From Oculatellaceae cyanobacterium bins.114 (GTDB lineage Bacteria > Cyanobacteriota > Cyanobacteriia > Elainellales > Elainellaceae): 13,720 nt of DNA. The translations under genes were made by a program, and so were the position numbers. The notes under the pieces were generated by a model, which made no database searches, was not told where the DNA came from, and saw only the letters and a list, made by a program, of their open reading frames with translations. This document shows, piece by piece, positions 1,274 to 13,134 of this stretch. Where the stretch lies: positions 1 to 13,720 of the forward strand of contig JANRJA010000040.1 of NCBI GenBank assembly GCA_033764315.1. Reading direction: 5' to 3'. The number at the start of each line of letters is the position of its first letter. Within the stretch, counting starts at the first letter, position 1.

Positions 1274-2251
1274 TTAGTTGTAGTTGGTTGCTTCAACAAG
1301 TAACGGAGATGACACATCATCTGAGTTCATCACTCGCTTGTAAGCATTGGCAGAGAGTTGGGCAGACTCTTTTTGCAGATACTCTAAAAACGTGCTGGCA
1401 ACGACCGAAAGCTGTTTGCCCGCTAGATAGACAACATACCACTCTCGTTGAATTGGAAACCCTTCTACATCTAACACAGTCAGTTCCCCAACGGTGTCAG
1501 GGGTTAGTGTATGCCGAGACAAAACAGCTATCCCAAGCCCTCCAGCGATCGCCTGCTTGATCGCTTCGTTGCTGCCTAACTCTAACCGCACTTTTACCGA
1601 AAGACCCTGACTATCTAAGAGTTTTTGTAATGCACTGCGAGTTCCAGAACCGGGTTCTCGCATAATAAATGTTTCCTCTGCCAACCGCTTTAGCGTGATG
1701 TTCTTTTCTTTGGCCAGTGGGTGAGTGGCAGGAGCAATCACGACTAAAGGATTGTCTAAAAATGGATGAGCTTTAATTTCAACATGATCAGGCAACTGAC
1801 TCATGACATAAAGATCATCCTGGTTGTTCGCCAGACGTTCAATTACTTGTTCGTGGTTAGTCACGGTTAGTGAAACGTCGATGCCGGGATATTTTTGACA
1901 AAACGGCCCCAACAGACGCGGCATGAAATATTTAGTGGTGGTAATGACAGCAAGGCGCAGGTGCCCCTGTTTCATGCCTTTCATGTCTGCCACTTTCATT
2001 TCAAGCTGCTCTAGATTGCTAAAAATCTGTTGACAGGTTGAAAATAACTCTCGCCCTGCATCTGTAAGATAAAGCCGTTTACCCACTTGCTCAAAGAGCG
2101 GCAATCCGATTGCTTTAGTCAACTGTTTGACCTGCATGGATACCGTGGGTTGTGTCAGAAATAGTTCTTCTGCGGCTCTTGTAAAACTGCCATGACGGGC
2201 AGTTGCCTCGAATACCTTAAGTTGATGAAGCGTGGCATGAATCACCCGCAA
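1274..2251 (-). CDS. LysR-family transcriptional regulator, CbbR subfamily (CmpR / NdhR-CcmR type, inorganic-carbon regulation)
   Basis: N-terminal HTH 'ATLHQLKVFEATARHGSFTRAAEELFLTQPTVSMQVKQL' plus 'AVITTTKYFMPRLLG', 'MREPGSGTR' and 'LELGSNEAIKQAIAGGLG', all typical of cyanobacterial CmpR/NdhR. TTG start with an AGGAG RBS. CmpR and NdhR cannot be separated by eye. Confidence 0.93.
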   Translation of the reverse strand: MRVIHATLHQLKVFEATARHGSFTRAAEELFLTQPTVSMQVKQLTKAIGLPLFEQVGKRLYLTDAGRELFSTCQQIFSNLEQLEMKVADMKGMKQGHLRLAVITTTKYFMPRLLGPFCQKYPGIDVSLTVTNHEQVIERLANNQDDLYVMSQLPDHVEIKAHPFLDNPLVVIAPATHPLAKEKNITLKRLAEETFIMREPGSGTRSALQKLLDSQGLSVKVRLELGSNEAIKQAIAGGLGIAVLSRHTLTPDTVGELTVLDVEGFPIQREWYVVYLAGKQLSVVASTFLEYLQKESAQLSANAYKRVMNSDDVSSPLLVEATNYN

Positions 2252-3153: not shown

Positions 3154-3744
3154 ATGTCATCGCTCATGCAGGTGCACCGAACCGTGCGATCGCTGTATCA
3201 ATTAATTTGGCAACCCAAACCAGATGCCCCGATTCAGTCTGCTCAATCTAGCAAATGGCACTCGGCGATTCGTTGGGTGTTACCCACAGATCTTGCCATA
3301 GGGTCACTTCCCAAACTGGGGTCAAGGGCTTCTTTGACCGAAGCAGGTATCAAAGCAATTCTCTCGTTGTGTGCTCCCTCAGAGGGGCAGTTACCAGAAG
3401 AGGTCGTTCAAAACTTCCGCTGTCATCGCTTTATTTTGCCAGACAGCCAATTTATTGCAGGGCTACAGGCTCATCAACTGGCTACCGCCGTTGAGATTAT
3501 TCATCAAAGCATCCAATCAGGTGAACCGATTTATGTTCATTGCTTAGCTGGAATTGAGCGATCGCCCACCGTTTGTATTGCCTATCTCTGCCGCTATCAC
3601 CATTTAGAATTGTGGGAAGCGATCAATTGTCTAAAACAGGCTCATGCGCGATCGATGCCAACTAATGCTCAGATTCAAGTCATCCGCGAGTTTCTTGAGA
3701 TTCGACCAGCCGCCGCTGAAGAGGAGATTGCCCACTGGAACTGA
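3154..3744 (+). CDS. Dual-specificity / protein-tyrosine phosphatase family protein
   Basis: Intact CX5R loop 'VHCLAGIERS', acid loop 'LPDS', N-terminal 'LAIGSLP...GIKAILSLC' and C-terminal 'MPTNAQ'. AAGGA lies just upstream of the ATG. Confidence 0.9.
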   Translation: MSSLMQVHRTVRSLYQLIWQPKPDAPIQSAQSSKWHSAIRWVLPTDLAIGSLPKLGSRASLTEAGIKAILSLCAPSEGQLPEEVVQNFRCHRFILPDSQFIAGLQAHQLATAVEIIHQSIQSGEPIYVHCLAGIERSPTVCIAYLCRYHHLELWEAINCLKQAHARSMPTNAQIQVIREFLEIRPAAAEEEIAHWN

Positions 3745-4155
3745 AGCTAAAAAATAGACATTGATTCTAAGAAGCAACAGACCCTATCTCGTCTGACTTT
3801 AAGGGCTTGTTAAACAAGCGGTAATTAACCCCTCTAGTTAAACCATCAATTAAGCAAAACCCCAGCGATTGGCATTCTGCATAGAAGTAATGGGGTTAAT
3901 CCAAGAGATTTTAGTTACAAAAATTGACAGAAGCCTGCTCAACCAACTGCTTAAGCTTAAGAACTTATTAAGACAAGCAGAGAATTTGATTTATGCGCTT
4001 AAATTAAATTCAAGATACCTCCTAACTGCGTCTCCAGCCTCATTTTTTTTACTCCAGAGTGAATTTGATGAGGCTGATATTTTTTGGAGATTTGATGTAT
4101 ATCTTTTAAAGGTTGACGCCTACATCTTCTATGAGTAAGTCAGTCTCTAGAAGGA

Positions 4156-4184
4156 TTGACGATCGCTAGAAGCAATGTTAACTT
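4156..4184 (+). promoter_or_regulatory. Putative sigma70-type promoter for the riboswitch/ABC transcript
   Basis: TTGACG (4156-4161), 17-nt spacer ending in TGn, TAACTT (4179-4184), ~40 nt before the aptamer. Confidence 0.5.
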
Positions 4185-4221
4185 ATCGTTTAATAACAAG
4201 TCAGCCTAATCTAGCTCCTCC

Positions 4222-4401
4222 TTGCACTTAGTTCGATTGCAGGAGAGCCAGAGCGGAGGAACCAAATTTTGGGGCTAATCTGGATACCTATCCTGCATAA
4301 AGCAGACGGGAACTACTTTCCTTAAGCTTTAATTGGTCTGCTATCCAGAGGGACACCTCTCAGTCCTAGCCCGTCAGCTAACTCCGTCGGCAGTGAGAGG
4401 A
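4222..4401 (+). ncRNA. Cyclic di-AMP riboswitch (ydaO/yuaA leader)
   Basis: Hallmark blocks in the expected order: AGAGCGGAGGAACCA, TTTTGGGGCTAATC, GAGGG, CCTAGCCCGTCAGCTAACTCCGTCGGC. CCTCTCA (4356-4362) pairs with TGAGAGG (4394-4400). It sits in the leader ~135 nt before the permease ATG. The 5' boundary is approximate. Confidence 0.9.
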
Positions 4402-4535
4402 GACTGAGGAATCAGCATTTATATCGCTTGATCTTCTTCAGTGTCCTCAAATTAGTGTGAGCAATGCTTCATGTCTTGTGAGATGAAGTTGTGTCGATAG
4501 TTTGCGATCGCTCTAGCCACTGAGGAGATACCTAA

Positions 4536-5387
4536 ATGATCCTGCAATCGGGTGTTCAAGCCGTTTCTACGGCTGCAAATACAAGCTGGAGAAAAGTTTT
4601 TCGCCCTGCCTTACTGCGAGATACGATTCTGTTACCATTCCTGGGGTTTGCCTCACTCATTCTAGTATGGTGGATTGCAGCAACTTTCTTTTCAACCTTA
4701 CTGCCTACTCCACTTCAAGCATTGACCGATAACTTTGACTATGTTATCCATCCGTTTTATCGACGAGGCCCCGGTGATTTAGGCATTGGCTGGTTATTGT
4801 TAGCCAGTCTACGACGAGTGTTGACTGGGTTTTTGTTGGGTTCTTTGGTGGCTGTTCCCATCGGCTTTTGGATTGGCACATCCAAACACGCCATGTTAGC
4901 CATTAACCCAATTGTGCAAATCTTGCGTCCAGTATCTCCTGTAGCCTGGCTGCCGATCGCTCTGGCCGTGTTTAACCAGGCAAATCCCTCTGCCATCTAT
5001 GTCATCTTCATTACGTCTCTGTGGTCTACGGTAATCAACACCGCACTGGGAGTGTCTAGCGTTCCCAAAGATTACATCAACGTCGCTCAAGTGTTAGAAA
5101 TGCCTCGATGGCGACAGATTTATAAAGTAATTTTGCCTGCTAGCTTGCCTTATATCTTTACAGGCTTGCGAATCAGTTTAGGGATTGCCTGGTTAGTCAT
5201 TGTGGCCGTCGAGATGTTGACCGGTGGGATTGGCATTGGCTTTTTTATCTGGGATGAATGGAATCGCCTCTCTCTCAGCTCAATCTTCTTGGCCATATTA
5301 GTGATTGGTTTGACAGGGCTAGTTATGGATTGGCTGTTGATTAAGTTGCAACAAGCCGTTACACACCGACCTGTGCAACACACTTAA
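4536..5387 (+). CDS. ABC transporter permease, nitrate/bicarbonate/cyanate family (NrtB/CmpB-like)
   Basis: 'GIGWLLLASLRRV', 'LRPVSPVAWLPIAL', 'ILPASLPYIFTGLRISLGIAWLVIVAVEMLTGGIGIGFFIWDEWN'; several TM helices; GAGGAG RBS. Confidence 0.93.
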   Translation: MILQSGVQAVSTAANTSWRKVFRPALLRDTILLPFLGFASLILVWWIAATFFSTLLPTPLQALTDNFDYVIHPFYRRGPGDLGIGWLLLASLRRVLTGFLLGSLVAVPIGFWIGTSKHAMLAINPIVQILRPVSPVAWLPIALAVFNQANPSAIYVIFITSLWSTVINTALGVSSVPKDYINVAQVLEMPRWRQIYKVILPASLPYIFTGLRISLGIAWLVIVAVEMLTGGIGIGFFIWDEWNRLSLSSIFLAILVIGLTGLVMDWLLIKLQQAVTHRPVQHT

Positions 5388-5556
5388 CAGGCTTTCGGGC
5401 AACCATTCAAAGCTCATCTTGCGTTTTTATCCCATTTCCTGCAAGCGTCACTCTGATTTTGGCTAGAGCACTGTCTATCGGGTAGATCTTGATGGCAGCT
5501 TTGAGAGGTAGCCGAAATGAGAGGCTTCTCACCCACCTACTTTTTCTCTAACCCCT

Positions 5557-6948
5557 ATGAATAAGATCACTCGGCGATCGCTTTTATATGGCATTGGTGG
5601 TTTTGCAGCCACAACTGCTCTATCGTCCTGCGGTAAAACAACTAGCATTCCAGGATTAACCGAAGAAGCCCATGCCGTAGAGCAGCTTGTAGACCCCAGT
5701 ACCCTAGAAAAACCTAATTTGACCGTCGGTTTTGTACCCGTTAATGACTGTGCCCCGTTTGCAGTGGCTTATACCAAAGGGTTTTTCTGGAAGTATGGGT
5801 TAAACGTCCAGTTGAGCCGAGAAGCCAGTTGGGGTACATCACGAGACGGTGTCATTTTTGGACGGCTCGACGCCTCCCCAGTGGTATCAGGAGCAGTCAC
5901 CAACGCGCGAATTGGAGCAGAAGGGGCACGTCACGCCCCCATGTGTGCAGCGATGACAATTCACCGTCACGGCAACGCCATGACCATGAACCGAGCCATG
6001 TGGGATGCCGGAATTCGTCCATTGCAAAGCTATAACGGTGATTTAGAAGCCTTTGGGCGCGATTTTCGTCGCTATTTTGAGAACTTGCCCCCCGAACGAC
6101 GCATCTGGGCAGTGGTGCTCAGTTCTTCAATTTATGAATACTTTGTGCGTTATCTGTCAGCGGCAGTTGGCGTCAACCCGATTGAGGAATTTCGCATCAT
6201 TATTATTCCGCCACCTCAAATGGTCAGTAATGTGCGAATCGGCGCAATGCAGGCATACATGGTGGCAGAACCGTGGAATACTCGTGCCATCTCAGGCAAT
6301 GAAGGAGTCGGTTTTACCTTTGCTCAAGGTAAAGAGATTTGGCAAGGACACCCCGATCGCGTTCTTGCCGTAATGGAACCCTTTATTGAACAAAATCCTA
6401 AAACCTACCGCTCTCTGGTCAAAGCCATGATCGAGGCGTGTCAGTTTTGCAGCGAACCCGCTAACCGACAAGAGGTAGTAGAAATTATCTCCAGTCGCTC
6501 TTTTACACGAGCCAAAGCGCAATATACTAAACCAGCGATCGTGGGGGAATATAACTACGGTGGGTTTGATAATCAACCCCGCATCACAAAAGCAGAAGAT
6601 ACCACTGTCTTCTTTAAAATGCCTGCTGATCTGCCCCACCCAGAAAATGACCATTCCACATTTCTCTGGCAATCACACAGTTTATGGTTGATGACCCAAG
6701 CGGCTCGTTGGGGACAAATTGACGAGTTTCCTGCTGATGCAGAACAACGGGCACGTCAGGCATGGCGCACTGATCTATATCGCGAGATTGCCGCTGAAAT
6801 GGGCATTGCTTGCCCTAGCGACGATTACAAAGTTGAACCCGCAGAAGTCTTCATCGATCGCCAAGCCTTTGACCCCAGTGATCCCATTGGCTATCTCAAC
6901 CGCTTTGAGATTCGAGCCAACCGACCAACCTCAATCTATCTCAGCTAA
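5557..6948 (+). CDS. CmpA/NrtA-family ABC substrate-binding lipoprotein (substrate uncertain)
   Basis: Twin-arginine signal 'TRRSLL', lipobox LSS-C25, 'LEKPNLTVGFVPVNDCAP', 'EASW', 'IPPPQMVSN', 'VAEPWN', 'IWQGHPD', 'WRTDLYRE'. Confidence 0.93.
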   Translation: MNKITRRSLLYGIGGFAATTALSSCGKTTSIPGLTEEAHAVEQLVDPSTLEKPNLTVGFVPVNDCAPFAVAYTKGFFWKYGLNVQLSREASWGTSRDGVIFGRLDASPVVSGAVTNARIGAEGARHAPMCAAMTIHRHGNAMTMNRAMWDAGIRPLQSYNGDLEAFGRDFRRYFENLPPERRIWAVVLSSSIYEYFVRYLSAAVGVNPIEEFRIIIIPPPQMVSNVRIGAMQAYMVAEPWNTRAISGNEGVGFTFAQGKEIWQGHPDRVLAVMEPFIEQNPKTYRSLVKAMIEACQFCSEPANRQEVVEIISSRSFTRAKAQYTKPAIVGEYNYGGFDNQPRITKAEDTTVFFKMPADLPHPENDHSTFLWQSHSLWLMTQAARWGQIDEFPADAEQRARQAWRTDLYREIAAEMGIACPSDDYKVEPAEVFIDRQAFDPSDPIGYLNRFEIRANRPTSIYLS

Positions 6949-7103
6949 AGCCATTGAAGAGTTGATGCAGGAAGCACCGCAAGCCCTCTTGTATCAACTG
7001 TTTTGACGGTTGCCATAAGCACTAATCACTCAAAAAGGCGAAAAGGGTTCAGCTTAGCACTCAGTATTGACCATTGCAAATTTCATCCTCACAGGACTTC
7101 ACC

Positions 7104-7943
7104 ATGATTAAGCCATTTGCTCCCTTTCCTGAAACAACCAACAACGCCATCAATAACAACCAGTTTTTAGTAGTCGAAAACTTGCAAAAAACCTATCCCA
7201 GTCCAGATGGAGGAGAAACCATTGTTCTCGACAATATAAACTTGACCATCGGTGAAAACGAATATATCTCCATCATTGGTCACTCTGGCTGCGGCAAATC
7301 TACATTGTTAAAGATTATTGCGGGGCTAGAGCGGCTGTCATCAGGGTCAGTTCGTTTGGAGGGCAATGAAATCTATAAACCTGGTGCTGAACGCATGATG
7401 GTCTTTCAACATTATTCGTTGTTGCCCTGGTTAACCGTTCGGGGAAATATTCGCTTGGCAGTGGACGAGGTATTAGATCACGTCCCTCCTAAAGAAAAAC
7501 GACGCATTGTAGATGAGCATCTGACAATGGTGAATCTGATGAGTGCAGCAGATAAATATCCGGATCAACTATCGGGTGGCATGAAACAGCGAGTGGGCAT
7601 TGCTCGGGCGTTGGCAATTCGCCCCAAGATGTTGTTGATGGATGAACCCTTTGGAGCGTTAGATGCTCTTACTCGCGGTAAGCTGCAACGTCAAGTCCTT
7701 GATATCTGGGAGAGTCACCGTCAGGCCGTCCTGATGGTAACTCATGATGTAGATGAAGCACTTTATATGTCTGATCGGATTATTATGATGACAAATGGAC
7801 CTGCGGCGACTATTGGCGAAATCGTCGAAGTACCGTTCCCCCATCCTCGCAATCTCCAGGAAATGCGTAAATCTCGTGAATATTATGAGCTACGCAACTA
7901 CATCCTAAATTTCTTGGATCAGCATTTTAGTAGCGACGAATAA
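7104..7943 (+). CDS. ABC transporter ATP-binding subunit, NrtD/CmpD-like (no NrtC/CmpC regulatory domain)
   Basis: Walker A GHSGCGKST, signature LSGGMKQR, Walker B LLMDEPFGALD, 'MVTHDVDEA', 'MMTNGPAATIGE'. ATG at 7104 follows CAGGA and is preferred over TTG at 7074. Confidence 0.93.
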   Translation: MIKPFAPFPETTNNAINNNQFLVVENLQKTYPSPDGGETIVLDNINLTIGENEYISIIGHSGCGKSTLLKIIAGLERLSSGSVRLEGNEIYKPGAERMMVFQHYSLLPWLTVRGNIRLAVDEVLDHVPPKEKRRIVDEHLTMVNLMSAADKYPDQLSGGMKQRVGIARALAIRPKMLLMDEPFGALDALTRGKLQRQVLDIWESHRQAVLMVTHDVDEALYMSDRIIMMTNGPAATIGEIVEVPFPHPRNLQEMRKSREYYELRNYILNFLDQHFSSDE

Positions 7944-8115
7944 AGTTTGTAGAGGAGAAATAGAGGAGGATAGGGGATAGAAATTTTCGCCAAACAACCT
8001 CTTGCTCGATTGCCTCTCACTCGATTCACTGCTTCACCCTAGTTTTAGGGTCAATTGAATACTCACGTCCTCTATTACTCCTCGCTCCTCACTCCTGACA
8101 AGGAAGGTATACGCT

Positions 8116-8823
8116 GTGAAAATTAAACCGATGTTGGCACGTCTAAAGAGTGCACTGGGTCAAGATCATCTGGTTGAACAGATGATCTTATTACCAGGGC
8201 AGTTTGCCTTTAATGTTGATGGCAATCAATCTAAAGAGACGGTTGATTTAGTCATTGGTTATAGCGGCTCAACCAATAGCCAAGCGGCTCTCGATTTGAC
8301 GCTGTGGATTGCCCATCAAACTCGGTTGGTGACTCAAAAACAGGTCATGGTGCATGTTGTATATGTCGTCGATCGCAGCCATAACCATGAAGTGACTCAC
8401 CGAGGGGCTAGTGCAGCGGTGCAGTTGCCTCGTCACATTCGATCTGCTCCGTTACAGCTAACCCGAACTAAAGGAGGCAATACAACCTATGCTCAGGCTG
8501 AACGGATGAATGGGCGATCGCCCCTACAGACCTCATGTTCGAGTGGCTGCTTTGACCTAGAACCTTCACCCACGGCTGTGTTAGAGCAGGCTGATTGCGT
8601 CTTGTGGCAAGCTCGATGCCTCGCCGAAGAGTGGCGTGGCTCGTTAGAGGCTCATTTACGCTTTGGTACTGTTGCAACTGAACTTCGCAATGTCGTCGAG
8701 GCAGAATCTGCCGATTTACTGGTGTTGGGTTGTAGTTCTTGCAAACACGCCCTGGTTCAGCAGTTGACAGCTCAATTTCCTTGCCCTGTGTTAGGAATTC
8801 CCACTCTCTTAGGCATTTCGTAA
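8116..8823 (+). CDS. Universal stress protein (UspA-like domain split by an internal insertion)
   Basis: '[17 protein letters not shown]...VHVVYV' N-half and 'EQAD.VL.QA...[21 protein letters not shown]...CPVLGIP' C-half. GTG start with AAGGAAGG upstream. Confidence 0.85.
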
Positions 8824-9092
8824 AATAATCTTAAGGTTTTATTAAGGCGCGGCATTAGACAAGAACCTCTGGAATAGTTGCAAAATTTTTGAGCCAAATG
8901 CCGCACCCTGATAGTTCAGCCAATGTTTTTTGGGGTAGCAACTGGCTACCCCTCTGCCATCTCTGAACCCCTTAATCAGGCTTGTTTAAGGGGAAAACTT
9001 TCAATTTACCTGTGGAGAATCTGGGTTTTCAGTAGAGTGCTGGGGATTCCCCAGATACAATAGTCAACAGAATCCCGGATTTGACACTGACC

Positions 9093-9896
9093 ATGACTGC
9101 CCCTTCAGACCTTAAAACAACCGAACCCACGCAAAACGGCAAATCCATTGTTGATCCTGCCGCCATTGACGATGAGATCATTGAGGATGAGGCGATCGAC
9201 GATATTGAGATGTCGCTGTTTGACCATTTAGAAGAGCTGCGACAACGAATCTTTTACGCCCTAATTGCGATTGTGCTTGGCATTGTGGGCTGTTTTGTCT
9301 TTGTCAACAAGATTGTGCAACTACTTGAAATACCCGCACAGGGAGTTAAGTTTTTGCAATTATCGCCAGGAGAATATTTCTTTGTCTCGATTAAAGTAGC
9401 TGGCTACAGCGGCTTATTGGTCGCCAGTCCTTTTGTGCTCTACCAAATTATTCAATTTGTACTGCCAGGGTTAACCCGTCGAGAGCGTCGCTTTATTGGG
9501 CCGATTGTCTTTGGTTCAAGCTTTTTGTTTGCGGGTGGTTTGTTTTTTGCCTATGTTGCGCTGATTCCGGCAGCACTCAACTTTTTTATCAATTATGGAG
9601 AAGACGTCGTTGAGCAGTTATGGTCAATCGATCGCTATTTTGAGTTTGTCTTGCTGCTACTCTTTAGCACAGGGCTAGCCTTTCAAATTCCTGTTATCCA
9701 AGTTCTGTTGGGTCTGCTAGGCATTGTTAACTCTAAGCAGATGCTATCAGGCTGGCGATATGTGATTTTAGGCGGTGCGGTGTTAGGAGCCGTCTTAACT
9801 CCTTCGACTGACCCTGTGACTCAAAGCCTATTAGCAGGTGCGATTTTGGGGCTATATTTCGGTGGCATTGGCATGACTAAATTGATCGGACGGTGA
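9093..9896 (+). CDS. tatC: Twin-arginine translocase subunit TatC
   Basis: '[14 protein letters not shown]', '[16 protein letters not shown]', '[10 protein letters not shown]', 'GLAFQIP', 'AVLTPSTDP'. Start is ATG 9093 or TTG 9081. Confidence 0.96.
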
Positions 9897-10013: not shown

Positions 10014-10331
10014 TCAAAACTCTTCTAACAGCCACTCTGAGGCACGTTCTCCCAAATCAATGGGGATGTTGACCGCTTTGCCTGTGCGGGGGCGATCGCT
10101 CGTCTGTTCAATAAAAACTGCCACTTGATCAGTGCTTCCCCAGGCGTTGAGATAGTTTGAGATGGCATCTAAATGTTCTAAATATTCGCTTTCAGAAAGG
10201 GGGAAAGATGCCTGCTCCAGGTATTTCCACATAATCTGAACAAAAATCTTACCTTGAGTACGACGCAGTTGAATGTCGTACGATCGCCCCCATTTGCTGA
10301 GTAATAGTTGATGCAGATCTTCCCCAGTCAT
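10014..10331 (-). CDS. DUF3067 family protein
   Basis: 'LLLSKWGRSYDIQL...QIMWKYLEQASFPLSE.EY..HL...RPRTGKAV.IP.DLG.RASEW'. This family is commonly found next to petC in cyanobacteria. Confidence 0.88.
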   Translation of the reverse strand: MTGEDLHQLLLSKWGRSYDIQLRRTQGKIFVQIMWKYLEQASFPLSESEYLEHLDAISNYLNAWGSTDQVAVFIEQTSDRPRTGKAVNIPIDLGERASEWLLEEF

Positions 10332-10591: not shown

Positions 10592-10984
10592 TTAATCCAG
10601 CTTATACACCTGAACACTTTCTTGTTCATTTGGGTCATTGCGAGATACTAGCGCGATCGCCTCTTCGGTACTACTGAGATTGACAGGTTGATGAGGCACC
10701 CCATTCGGAATGAAAATAAAATCTCCTTGCTGATTTACCACAGACTTAGAGAGATTTTTGCCATAAAAGGTTTGCACATTACCTTTTAGGAGATAGATTG
10801 CTGTTTCAAATCCATCATGAAAATGAGGTTCTGCCTTTGCACCTGGTGGAATAACTACAATATTCATCGATATGCCAGTTGCTCCAGCCGTTTTCTCTGA
10901 AATACCAACATAGTTTGGTAATCGTTGAACTGTATCGACCGCTTCCGAAGGTCTGACTGTCACTATATCTTTGTCTAGATTCAC
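10592..10984 (-). CDS. Cupin (RmlC-like) domain protein
   Basis: Cupin motif 1 'IPPGAKAEPHFHDGFETAIYLLKG' and motif 2 'GDFIFIPNGVPHQPVN' give an intact 3-His-1-Glu metal site. GTG start with a GAGG RBS. Confidence 0.88.
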   Translation of the reverse strand: MNLDKDIVTVRPSEAVDTVQRLPNYVGISEKTAGATGISMNIVVIPPGAKAEPHFHDGFETAIYLLKGNVQTFYGKNLSKSVVNQQGDFIFIPNGVPHQPVNLSSTEEAIALVSRNDPNEQESVQVYKLD

Positions 10985-11528: not shown

Positions 11529-12071
11529 ATGGCTCAACTCTCTGGAAATCCTGATGTACCCGATTTGGGTCGTCGCCAATTTATGAATGTGCTCTTGCTT
11601 GGGGCTGGGGCAACCACCGTTTTAGGTGCGCTCTACCCTGTGGTGAAATATTTCATTCCCCCTTCAAGTGGTGCGACCGGAGGTGGTGTTGTTGCTAAAG
11701 ATGCTCTGGGTAAAGATATTGCCGTCAGCGATTTTCTAGCCAGCCATGCGCCGGGCGAGCGTGCTTTAGCGCAAGGGTTGAAGGGCGATCCCACTTATAT
11801 TGTGGTTGAGAGTTCTGATGCGATCGCCAACTATGGCATCAGCGCAGTCTGCACTCACCTGGGTTGTGTCGTGCCTTGGAATGGCAATGAAGGAAAGTTC
11901 ATTTGCCCCTGCCACGGTTCTCAATATGACGGCACAGGTAAAGTTGTGCGTGGCCCTGCTCCTCTCTCTCTGGCACTGGCTCATGCTAATGTCACTGACG
12001 ATGGCACAATTGCTCTGACTCCTTGGACCGAAACCGATTTCCGTACAGGCGATGACCCCTGGTGGGCATAA
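11529..12071 (+). CDS. petC: Cytochrome b6f Rieske iron-sulfur subunit
   Basis: '[12 protein letters not shown]', Rieske boxes CTHLGC and CPCHGSQY, 'VRGPAPLSL', '[14 protein letters not shown]'. Confidence 0.98.
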
Positions 12072-12144
12072 CAAAGTGCTTTCCTGTCTGCGGCTAAACC
12101 CCCTCCTCCTGTCTAAATCCTTTGATATTGAACACACACTACAC

Positions 12145-13134
12145 ATGAAATCAACGTTTTGGTCAACGCTGTCGCTTCAGAGCGGTAAGGTTGCGATCAA
12201 GAGTGTTTTAGTGGCGATCGCCACCCTCACCCTCCTGTTAACCAGCGATCTCGCCCTACCCCAATCTGCTGCTGCTTACCCATTTTGGGCACAGCAAAAC
12301 TATGAAAGCCCTCGTGAAGCCACTGGGCGGATTGTCTGCGCTAACTGTCACTTGGCTGCAAAGCCAACTGAGGTAGAGTTGCCACAAGCCGTATTGCCCG
12401 ACACGGTTTTCAAAGCGGTGGTTAAAATTCCTTATGACACCAGCGTCCAACAAGTTCAGGCCAATGGTGAAAAAGGTCCCTTAAACGTGGGTGCAGTTTT
12501 GATGCTGCCTCCAGGGTTTAAGATCGCCCCCGAAGACCGTATTCCTGAAGAGATGAAGGAAGAAGTCGGTCCTAGCTATTTATTCCAACCTTACGCTGAG
12601 GATAAAGAAAACATTGTTTTGGTAGGTCCTTTACCGGGCGACCAATATCAAGAAATCGTTTTCCCAGTCCTCTCTCCTGATCCAAACGCTGACAAGTCGG
12701 TTTCCTTTGGCAAATATTCAGTCCATGTCGGAGCCAACCGAGGTCGGGGTCAAGTTTATCCCACTGGCGAAAAGAGCAACAACACGGTTTACAACGCATC
12801 TGTCAGTGGCACCGTGACTCAAGTTGCAAAAGGAGATGATGGCGGCTACAAAGTCACCATTCAACCCAAAGATGGCATGGCCGTCGTAGATACCATTCCT
12901 CCTGGGCCTGAGTTGTTGGTTGCTGAGGGTCAAGAGGTTGTCGCAGCGTCTGCTCTCACCGCCAACCCCAATGTGGGCGGGTTTGGTCAGGTTGATGCCG
13001 AAGTCGTCTTGCAAAATCCGATTCGTGTTGCTGGTTTAGTCGCTTTCTTAGCAGCCGTTACGGTGACTCAAATCATGCTGGTCTTGAAGAAGAAGCAGGT
13101 TGAGCGAGTTCAGGCCGCTGAAATGAACTTCTAA
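12145..13134 (+). CDS. petA: Apocytochrome f
   Basis: Signal peptide ending AAA, mature N-terminus '[25 protein letters not shown]', 'NRGRGQVYP', C-terminal TM helix and 'LKKKQVE...AEMNF'. The true start is most likely ATG 12145, not 12052. Confidence 0.98.

Follow-up and report, generated by a model that had tools for sequence, protein, structure and literature searches.

A c-di-AMP riboswitch linked to an NrtA/CmpA-family importer and a universal stress protein gene in cyanobacteria

We analysed a 13,720-nt stretch of DNA (the window; contig JANRJA010000040.1 of assembly GCA_033764315.1, Oculatellaceae cyanobacterium bins.114), in which a riboswitch of the cyclic di-adenosine monophosphate (c-di-AMP) class leads, at 4156-8823 on the plus strand, into genes for an ATP-binding cassette (ABC) transporter of the NrtABCD/CmpABCD type and for a universal stress protein (USP)-like companion. 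An earlier note on this DNA had read there a promoter-like -35/-10 pair, a ydaO-class aptamer and genes for permease, binding protein, ATPase and USP, in this order, and had proposed a distinct anion importer under c-di-AMP control of an osmotic or day-night kind. The aptamer and the gene order on one strand were borne out by the covariance model and by the open reading frames with their family models. The source is a cyanobacterium, consistent with petC and petA at 11529-13134 and tatC at 9081-9896.

Riboswitch and transporter genes of the window

The leader matched the covariance model RF00379 at 4193-4407 (plus strand), scoring 66.7 bits where the gathering score is 38 (E 6.2e-14). The entire model, positions 1-134, is covered without truncation, and the length of 215 nt is due to two loop insertions of 35 and 58 nt; the 3' end of the aptamer lies 128 nt before the permease start on the same strand. 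The 6.6-Mb, 251-contig assembly contains two RF00379 matches, one of which is this same aptamer, and the genome also encodes a DAC-domain diadenylate cyclase (135 bits). The riboswitch itself is an ordinary class member, and on this model score the aptamer is predicted to bind c-di-AMP and to control expression.

Upstream of the aptamer lies a putative promoter (4156-4184, plus strand), with TTGACG at 4156-4161, a 17-nt spacer, TG at 4176-4177 and TAACTT at 4179-4184. The -35/-10 pair is present as it had first been read, but it is weak and does not appear in the output of the consensus promoter scan; a comparable TG-n-TA...T element was seen by eye, uncounted, upstream of the aptamer in many of 21 orthologous leaders. 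Behind the aptamer, 4408-4535 (plus strand) would constitute the expression platform, judged by constrained folds and leader comparison. As had been remarked before, the NtcA-type motif GTA-N8-TAC is not in the leader, and it occurs in the window only at 791 and 5689.

The first gene encodes an NrtB-like ABC permease of 283 aa (4536-5387, plus strand; PF00528, BPD_transp_1), the second an NrtA/CmpA-family binding lipoprotein of 463 aa (5557-6948, plus strand; PF13379, NMT1_2, 218.7 bits) and the third an NrtD-like ABC ATPase of 289 aa (7074-7943, plus strand; ABC_tran). Permease and ATPase pass the curated NrtB and NrtC/D models (TIGR01183, ntrB, 235.5 bits versus 209.05; TIGR01184, ntrCD, 359.8 bits versus 291.8). 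Instead of the A-B-C-D operon with its NrtC-type regulatory-domain ATPase, the genes run B-A-D with a single 289-aa ATPase devoid of a C-terminal regulatory domain. Neither a fused NrtC/CmpC-type ATPase nor the nitrate or cyanate assimilation genes nirA, narB and cynS were found in the window, in agreement with the earlier note on both counts. Permease orthologs at 65-70% identity come first after the riboswitch in 21 loci, and for the ATPase the column identity averages 78% across 20 orthologs. At the start of the binding protein stand a twin-arginine signal and a lipobox (RRSLL...LSSC), the RR motif being kept in 117/120 close homologs; with these two features it is an exported lipoprotein, like NrtA and CmpA.

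In the spacer behind the binding-protein gene (6949-7073), a strong hairpin is followed by GUUUUGA, which may be an internal attenuator or a stabiliser favouring the binding-protein message. Spacers between the operon genes range from 0 to about 500 nt among the orthologs.

A search of the same genome with the binding protein revealed two more clusters, both in the canonical A-B-C-D order of binding protein, permease, fused ATPase with an NrtA-like domain (667 and 693 aa) and second ATPase. The binding protein of the contig 21 cluster matches solved NrtA (2G29) at E 7.5e-184, and that of the contig 17 cluster has a CmpA-type pocket. The contrast with canonical clusters that the earlier note had drawn can thus be made within one genome, and since a nitrate-type and a bicarbonate-type cluster are both present, the window system is a third, reduced relative and not a replacement.

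Pocket and phylogeny of the binding protein

Among solved relatives of the window binding protein, the regulatory domains of CmpC and NrtC, which bind nitrate, score best (E about 1e-65), followed by NrtA and CmpA (about 1e-49). According to the accessible part of PMC13287603, the CmpC domain holds nitrate by W319, H408, G452 and K481, of which K481 corresponds to NrtA K269 and sets nitrate specificity, with a Glu there in CmpA, and nitrate binders close round a pocket of only 47 cubic angstroms. We mapped these positions via the alignment to the structural relative (chain index + 259), in which Trp, His, Gly and Lys fell on the expected letters. NrtA Q155, a fifth contact, was confirmed as to residue identity on the 2G29 chain by the K269 offset, and its position is occupied by Asn in the regulatory domains and in the window protein. 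The pocket of the latter thus reads W92, N140, Y193, A237 and R268. In the same genome, NrtA and the NrtC and CmpC domains all have W-H-G-K and CmpA has W-Q-G-E; with five positions counted, nitrate binders read W-(Q/N)-H-G-K.

The window signature was found to be invariant among close relatives. W-Y-A-R occurs in 21/21 riboswitch-linked binding proteins (the window and 20 loci), and W-N-Y-A-R in 120/120 close homologs, that is, the window protein and its 119 best database matches (71-90% identical). A profile-free search of 1.84 billion cluster representatives yielded 2776 relatives at E ≤0.001, and 145 rows were aligned, comprising 135 of the 150 listed representatives (at least 330 aa), the window protein, 5 orthologs and 4 paralogs from its own genome. 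W-H-G-K is present in 109 of these 145 rows, and W-Y-A-R only in the window protein, the 5 orthologs and one representative, P0122.

We then placed 75 rows in a maximum-likelihood tree (the window protein, the 4 paralogs, the 5 orthologs and the 65 best representatives, lower-ranked ones being left out), with branch support from the Shimodaira-Hasegawa-like approximate likelihood ratio test (SH-aLRT). The 7 W-Y-A-R rows form one clade on a long stem (SH-aLRT 100), NrtA and CmpA of the same genome stand together in a separate clade (99), and the NrtC/CmpC regulatory domains form a third (99). The nearest neighbours of the window clade (96) likewise come from cyanobacteria and have odd signatures such as W-Y-T-K and W-D-A-Q; the odd-signature relatives P0123, P0124, P0128, P0132, P0138 and P0152 are named only in generic terms, as 'nitrate/nitrite' or 'CmpA/NrtA family'.

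The window protein therefore has Tyr, Ala and Arg where NrtA has its nitrate contacts His, Gly and Lys, does not group with NrtA in the tree, and carries Arg and Tyr at the positions of the Glu and Gln of CmpA. The distinctness that the earlier note had proposed is upheld by the clade, which lies outside both that of NrtA and CmpA and that of the regulatory domains, and by the invariant pocket; as for the anion and the osmotic or day-night signal, we infer them as the note did. Since the pocket differs from the nitrate (His, Gly, Lys) and the bicarbonate (Gln, Gly, Glu) signatures, the cargo would be a different small solute, and because a cationic residue is kept, it is most likely still an anion. 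A small anion would indeed be favoured by the kept Trp together with this residue, and a large organic solute is disfavoured, as the three changed residues are bulkier than in nitrate binders.

Conservation of the linkage and the USP companion

Of 151 genomes sampled from the phylum, 41 (the window genome, G000, included) contain RF00379, with 66 matches. We fetched 53 loci, which cover all 64 matches outside the window genome, and searched them with the four window proteins. Of the 64 riboswitches, 21 lead directly into the permease, then into binding protein and ATPase where the locus reaches, the encoded proteins having 65-77% identity to the window proteins in full-length matches, and 18 lead into a USP-like gene. 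A binding-protein ortholog (69-73% identity) is present in 25/151 genomes, and a riboswitch lies upstream of it in 22 of the 24 besides the window genome, one of the 22 being cut by a contig start (35.9 bits, model positions 86-134). As these genomes are mutually related, the counts describe a distribution and not independent events. Riboswitch and B-A-D order, whose co-occurrence had been suggested as a check, thus go together across the sample. The riboswitches before the transporter are mostly long, 19/22 (window included) reaching at least 170 nt due to loop insertions, and those before the USP gene mostly compact, with 14/18 at 140 nt or less.

Outside this module, the riboswitch leads in the sample into genes of an ion or osmotic type: CitMHS/ArsB-type permeases follow 10 of the 64 and GT4 glycosyltransferases 3, and single matches precede genes for Kup, for a P-type cation ATPase and for a Na+/H+ exchanger-USP-EIIA fusion. 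One match each also precedes the genes for ExoD and for a Band-7 protein. Two more are transporter-riboswitch copies beside an opposite-strand histidine kinase gene in one genus, and the remainder comprise one weak DUF937 case (below cut-off), three without a clear first gene and one (L075) that was not scanned. In one of the duplicated loci (L039), riboswitch, leader and first permease codons recur at 300-700 and 2274-2674 with 95% identity over about 400 nt, flanking the gene for a 405-aa histidine kinase (RsbRD_N, HisKA, HATPase_c) on the opposite strand, and L040 shows the same coordinate layout. The fusion gene (L065, in G092; 3199-5694, minus strand) encodes 831 aa with a Na+/H+ exchanger, a USP domain and a phosphotransferase-system EIIA-2 domain, by which it is, at the level of domain assignment, another USP module attached to a c-di-AMP-regulated transporter. 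The other RF00379 match of the window genome (contig C115:854-1035, locus L002; 51.5 bits) precedes a gene for a 468-aa GT4 glycosyltransferase, a pairing also present in L062, L063 and L077; we considered this gene (L002 1093-2499) as a sucrose-phosphate synthase and rejected the assignment, since no NCBIfam cut-off was reached and the best model was MshA (281 versus 462 bits).

The fourth gene (8116-8823, plus strand) encodes a USP-fold protein (235 aa; PF00582, 29.2 versus 24 bits) that has a helix at its N terminus and a disordered stretch inserted at about residues 90-148. Its structural model, based on 25 aligned orthologs, has a mean predicted local distance difference test value (pLDDT) of 70 and a predicted template modelling score (pTM) of 0.67, with a confident core and low confidence at residues 31-37 and 90-148. 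The top listed structural matches are all USPs, the best being 4WNY (E 5.1e-07, template modelling score (TM) 0.78 by target), and the protein thus belongs to PF00582 both by a score above the gathering score and by the USP alpha/beta fold of the model. ATP-binding USPs are marked by a Walker-A-like G-x2-G-x9-G-(S/T) and c-di-AMP-binding USPs of the KdpD type by (A/G/C)-x-S-x-S-x2-N-(Y/F) (PMC8214093). The former motif, that of the UspFG type, is absent in the 25 aligned sequences except for its invariant first Gly (G205). At the latter, the window protein reads G-Y-S-G-S-T-N-S-Q, without the N-(Y/F) pair, and the position of the first Ser varies in the family (D, N or S), as does that of the usual Asp of the beta1-alpha1 loop (D, N or S).

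USP orthologs were found in 30 of the 151 genomes, with 30 copies in the 29 besides the window genome. Eighteen of these copies have their own RF00379 upstream, two of them with riboswitch-gene gaps of 0.66 and 1.1 kb, and nine of the 18 lie directly after the transporter ATPase gene, so that the locus reads riboswitch, B, A, D, riboswitch, USP. That the USP-like gene is itself a riboswitch gene in relatives goes beyond the earlier note. Seven copies come after the transporter and lack a separate riboswitch, as in the window, one of them 1.9 kb away; in five genomes of one genus, the USP gene begins about 50 nt after the ATPase gene with no riboswitch between. The remaining five have neither riboswitch nor transporter nearby, as judged from loci that were not individually inspected. 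By genome, 21 have both genes, 4 have just the binding protein and 9 have just the USP gene. In two genomes of one genus (L091 of G086 and L092 of G065), the USP gene lies apart from the B-A-D genes and keeps a riboswitch of its own at another place in the genome.

Two further loci bear on the role of the companion. In G083 (L079, L094, contig C37), only the last 47 ATPase codons precede a riboswitch and the USP gene. In G017 (L090), the sole sampled genome of the same family, the USP gene is preceded at 0.66 kb by a riboswitch, and transporter genes are absent between the two; the 3' part of this riboswitch is 92% identical over 60 nt to that of the window, a short stretch after it is also common to both, and no transporter remnant above chance was detected in the 660-nt gap. 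Because both genomes keep the USP gene without the transporter, a dedicated subunit is disfavoured and a common regulon supported.

In the window, the 172-nt spacer between the ATPase and USP genes (7944-8115, plus strand) contains neither a riboswitch nor a terminator-like site. A second riboswitch before the USP gene was rejected as a candidate, as 7800-8300 gave no RF00379 match even at E ≤10 and the fold of the spacer (z -0.97 versus shuffles) is not significant. A complex prediction for ATPase and USP scored 0.44, against 0.00 for the best of three controls, although one of its three runs gave 0.02; agreement between runs amounts to at least 51% of contacts, and the partner pLDDT is at least 65. 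Of 80 solved complexes, 58 reached the mark applied, as did 2 of 110 mismatched pairs; at scores of 0.60 or less, it was reached by only 7 of those 80 together with both passing mismatches. The prediction thus hints weakly at a contact, one that would more often be wrong than right unless it was likely beforehand.

Proposed working and rival readings

We interpret 4156-8823 as one c-di-AMP-repressed unit, made up of an NrtABCD/CmpABCD-type importer of distinct cargo and a co-regulated USP companion, with a probability of about 0.7. Transcription would start from the weak sigma-70-type promoter and give a leader carrying the complete ydaO-class aptamer, whose 3' tail is presumably engaged in the ligand-bound state, as in solved ydaO structures. 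At high c-di-AMP, the bound aptamer would keep this tail engaged, leaving TCCTCA at 4444-4449 free to cover the ribosome-binding site, so that the operon is off; at low c-di-AMP, the tail would pair with the TCCTCA segment and the operon would be expressed. Comparison of two constrained folds is consistent with such a switch: with the tail free, TCCTCA pairs with it and the ribosome-binding site GAGGAG (4522-4527) is open, and with the tail held unpaired, TCCTCA pairs with TGAGGA (4521-4526). A conserved hairpin, kept in 5 aligned leaders of the 22 available, begins within the aptamer tail (about 4400-4450). Every characterised c-di-AMP riboswitch of the RF00379 class is an OFF switch, and that the operon would be OFF at high c-di-AMP can be proposed with fair confidence. 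OFF logic for the class is likewise stated in the available text of PMC12789804, where Synechococcus sp. PCC 7002 is described as transcribing, in all conditions, a c-di-AMP riboswitch that lies 5' of a unit for an ABC transporter, with the transporter genes silent. Confidence is low for translational sequestration in the window genome, and premature termination or decay is a nearly equal alternative read-out.

The importer itself would comprise a presumed permease homodimer, a presumed ATPase homodimer and the Tat (twin-arginine translocation)-exported lipoprotein capturing the substrate in the periplasm. As the NrtC/CmpC domain is absent, allosteric control by nitrate or PII of the NrtC/CmpC kind is not expected. 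The USP gene is probably read through from the operon in the window genome; many relatives have a second riboswitch before it.

Several results weigh against this interpretation. The computed unpaired probability of the ribosome-binding site shifts just from 0.54 to 0.45 in the window, and over 15 orthologous leaders it was little changed or moved in the wrong direction; sequestration was therefore rejected as the general mechanism and is kept only for the window. The terminator scan of the window leader gave no site in 4407-4536, and an intrinsic terminator was rejected as the expression platform, the U-run of some orthologous leaders being absent here. Two B-A-D operons of one genus (G065, G086) have no riboswitch at E ≤0.01. 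The NCBIfam nitrate-transporter models for permease and ATPase exceed their cut-offs. The Lys-to-Arg change is conservative, so that nitrate or nitrite may still bind. With regard to the companion, a weak promoter-like site at 8095-8123 may give the USP gene its own start, and the gene occurs in 9 sampled genomes in which no binding-protein ortholog was found, which argues against a dedicated subunit.

The closest rival for the cargo would be a third NRT-type nitrate/nitrite transporter that has lost the C subunit and is governed by c-di-AMP instead of NtcA and PII. Its permease and ATPase would be those passing TIGR01183 and TIGR01184, its nearest solved relatives are the nitrate-binding NrtC/CmpC domains (E about 1e-65), and its pocket retains W92 together with a cationic residue at the position that compensates charge. 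However, three of the four published contacts are changed (H to Y, G to A, K to R), invariantly in the 120 homologs, whereas W-H-G-K is kept in most aligned relatives (109/145) and the window clade stands apart on its long stem; the leader has no NtcA-type site, no assimilation genes are nearby in the window, and a canonical nitrate-type cluster is already present. We thus consider nitrate unlikely. A BCT1-type bicarbonate importer, tying c-di-AMP to inorganic-carbon uptake in parallel to SbtB, would fit the superfamily shared with CmpABCD, the CbbR-like LysR gene 2 kb upstream on the other strand, and the action of c-di-AMP on carbon uptake via SbtB described in part of PMC8654305, but the Glu given as the CmpA specificity residue in the available portion of PMC13287603 is Arg here, its Gln is Tyr, and the protein lies apart from CmpA in the tree, making this reading very improbable. 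An organic osmoprotectant or another non-anionic planar solute would suit the co-regulated GT4 glycosyltransferases and ion transporters of the sample, as well as the summary of targets as osmoprotectant synthesis and transport given in excerpts of PMC5986932, PMC4284465 and PMC8654305; as all three pocket changes are bulkier than in nitrate binders (47 cubic angstroms in the accessible part of PMC13287603), it would require a rebuilt cleft and appears quite improbable.

The membership of the USP gene in the unit is less settled, and its being an independent transcription unit, outside the control of the 4193-4407 riboswitch, is a possibility to be taken seriously even though we think it the less probable case. 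The 172-nt spacer with its promoter-like site would allow it, and elsewhere 18/30 copies have their own riboswitch and presumably their own start, with five more, at loci not inspected, having neither riboswitch nor transporter nearby. Against it stand the lack of a terminator-like site at 7943-8116, the five genomes of one genus with the USP gene about 50 nt behind the ATPase gene and no riboswitch, and the window-like riboswitch of G017 (3' part 92% over 60 nt) that leads to the USP gene without a transporter between. We retain the single c-di-AMP-repressed unit with read-through into the USP gene. A bolder extension, which we regard as distinctly unlikely, would make the W-N-Y-A-R clade a third cargo class of the NrtA/CmpA superfamily, for a small anion other than nitrate or bicarbonate, with the USP as a cytoplasmic regulator that docks on the ATPase in place of the NrtC/CmpC domain, a contact at which the complex prediction hints weakly, and perhaps senses nucleotides; at a guess, the cargo would be chloride or another counter-ion for turgor or K+ balance. 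If this were true and the USP sensed c-di-AMP or another adenine nucleotide, c-di-AMP control would operate at both the RNA and the protein level.

Compared with known systems, the window transporter resembles NrtABCD (NrtA 2G29; NrtBCD 8WM7) in the superfamily of all three components, the lipoprotein binder and the pocket Trp with a cationic residue, but differs in its B-A-D order, in lacking the nitrate-sensing domain of NrtC, in Y/A/R for H/G/K, in its separate clade and in having a c-di-AMP riboswitch in place of an NtcA-type site. With CmpABCD (BCT1; CmpA 2I48, CmpBCD 9U9Z) it shares superfamily and fold, but it has no CmpC, carries Arg at the bicarbonate-specific Glu of CmpA and does not group with CmpA. 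The Bacillus kimA/ktrAB and kdpFABC riboswitches act by transcription termination. The ydaO/yuaA riboswitches of Bacillus subtilis kimA/ktrAB and Bacillus thuringiensis kdpFABC (PMC6488665) are of the same Rfam family and likewise lie upstream of uptake systems, and the riboswitch of the window presumably shares their OFF logic, but they govern K+ systems and not an NrtA-family ABC importer, and the window leader has no terminator-like site.

For the companion, a parallel is found in TeaABC-TeaD of Halomonas elongata (3HGM), an osmoregulated importer that depends on a binding protein and has a USP gene at the operon end. TeaD occupies ranks 2-4 among the structural matches of the USP model (E 3.1e-06, TM 0.68 by target). 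TeaD binds ATP. The two systems differ in that TeaABC is a tripartite ATP-independent periplasmic (TRAP) and not an ABC transporter, TeaD and the window USP share just 13-14% identity, and the window family is without G-x2-G-x9-G-(S/T). The c-di-AMP-bound USP domain of KdpD (7JI4; PMC8214093) has the same fold (rank 35, E 8.8e-04) and, like the window protein, lacks the Walker-A motif, keeps its first Gly and has no conserved beta1-alpha1 Asp, but the window protein does not match the published c-di-AMP binding motif.

The association of the riboswitch with nrtB is already known in print, as the available text of PMC12873609 places ydaO-yuaA beside nrtB (K15577) in a 202-genome cyanobacterial screen; the accessible parts of that paper and of PMC12789804 hold no analysis of the transporter, the pocket, the USP companion or a second riboswitch. 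The Synechocystis target of the riboswitch named in PMC10117731, slr0753, belongs to a different family, the CitMHS/ArsB type of the present sample, and cyanobacterial targets are otherwise summarised, citing Nelson et al. 2013, as osmoprotectant synthesis and transport or ion homeostasis (excerpts of PMC5986932, PMC4284465 and PMC8654305). Our literature searches returned no functional work on either the transporter or the USP-like protein and no pocket analysis, nor was the USP companion or its second riboswitch mentioned, although supplementary gene lists may include them. The transporter is an uncharacterised but sharply defined NrtA/CmpA subfamily, with a different architecture, a different regulator and probably a different cargo.

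c-di-AMP is essential for day-night and stress survival of cyanobacteria, in which few of its targets are known, and the present module is among the commonest targets of its riboswitch in the phylum (21/64 into the transporter, 18/64 into the USP gene). The transporter is annotated everywhere as nitrate or 'CmpA/NrtA family', and the invariant pocket, unlike both known specificities, turns this vague annotation into a ligand-screen question for one soluble protein and advises caution before genome-based models credit such genes to the capacity for nitrate or bicarbonate uptake. Occurring both with a riboswitch of its own and without one, the USP companion furthermore provides a natural series on the role of a stand-alone USP beside a transporter.

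As for the surroundings, the window encodes at 1274-2251 (minus strand) a LysR regulator with CbbR as best match (257.8 bits, below the cut-off of 450) and at 3154-3744 (plus strand), upstream of the riboswitch unit, a dual-specificity protein phosphatase; an 89-aa open reading frame (3869-4138) with no family assignment stops 18 nt short of the promoter-like site. Downstream lie tatC, genes for a DUF3067 protein (10014-10331, minus strand) and a cupin (10592-10984, minus strand), and petC-petA. Here tatC adjoins a unit whose binding protein needs the Tat pathway.

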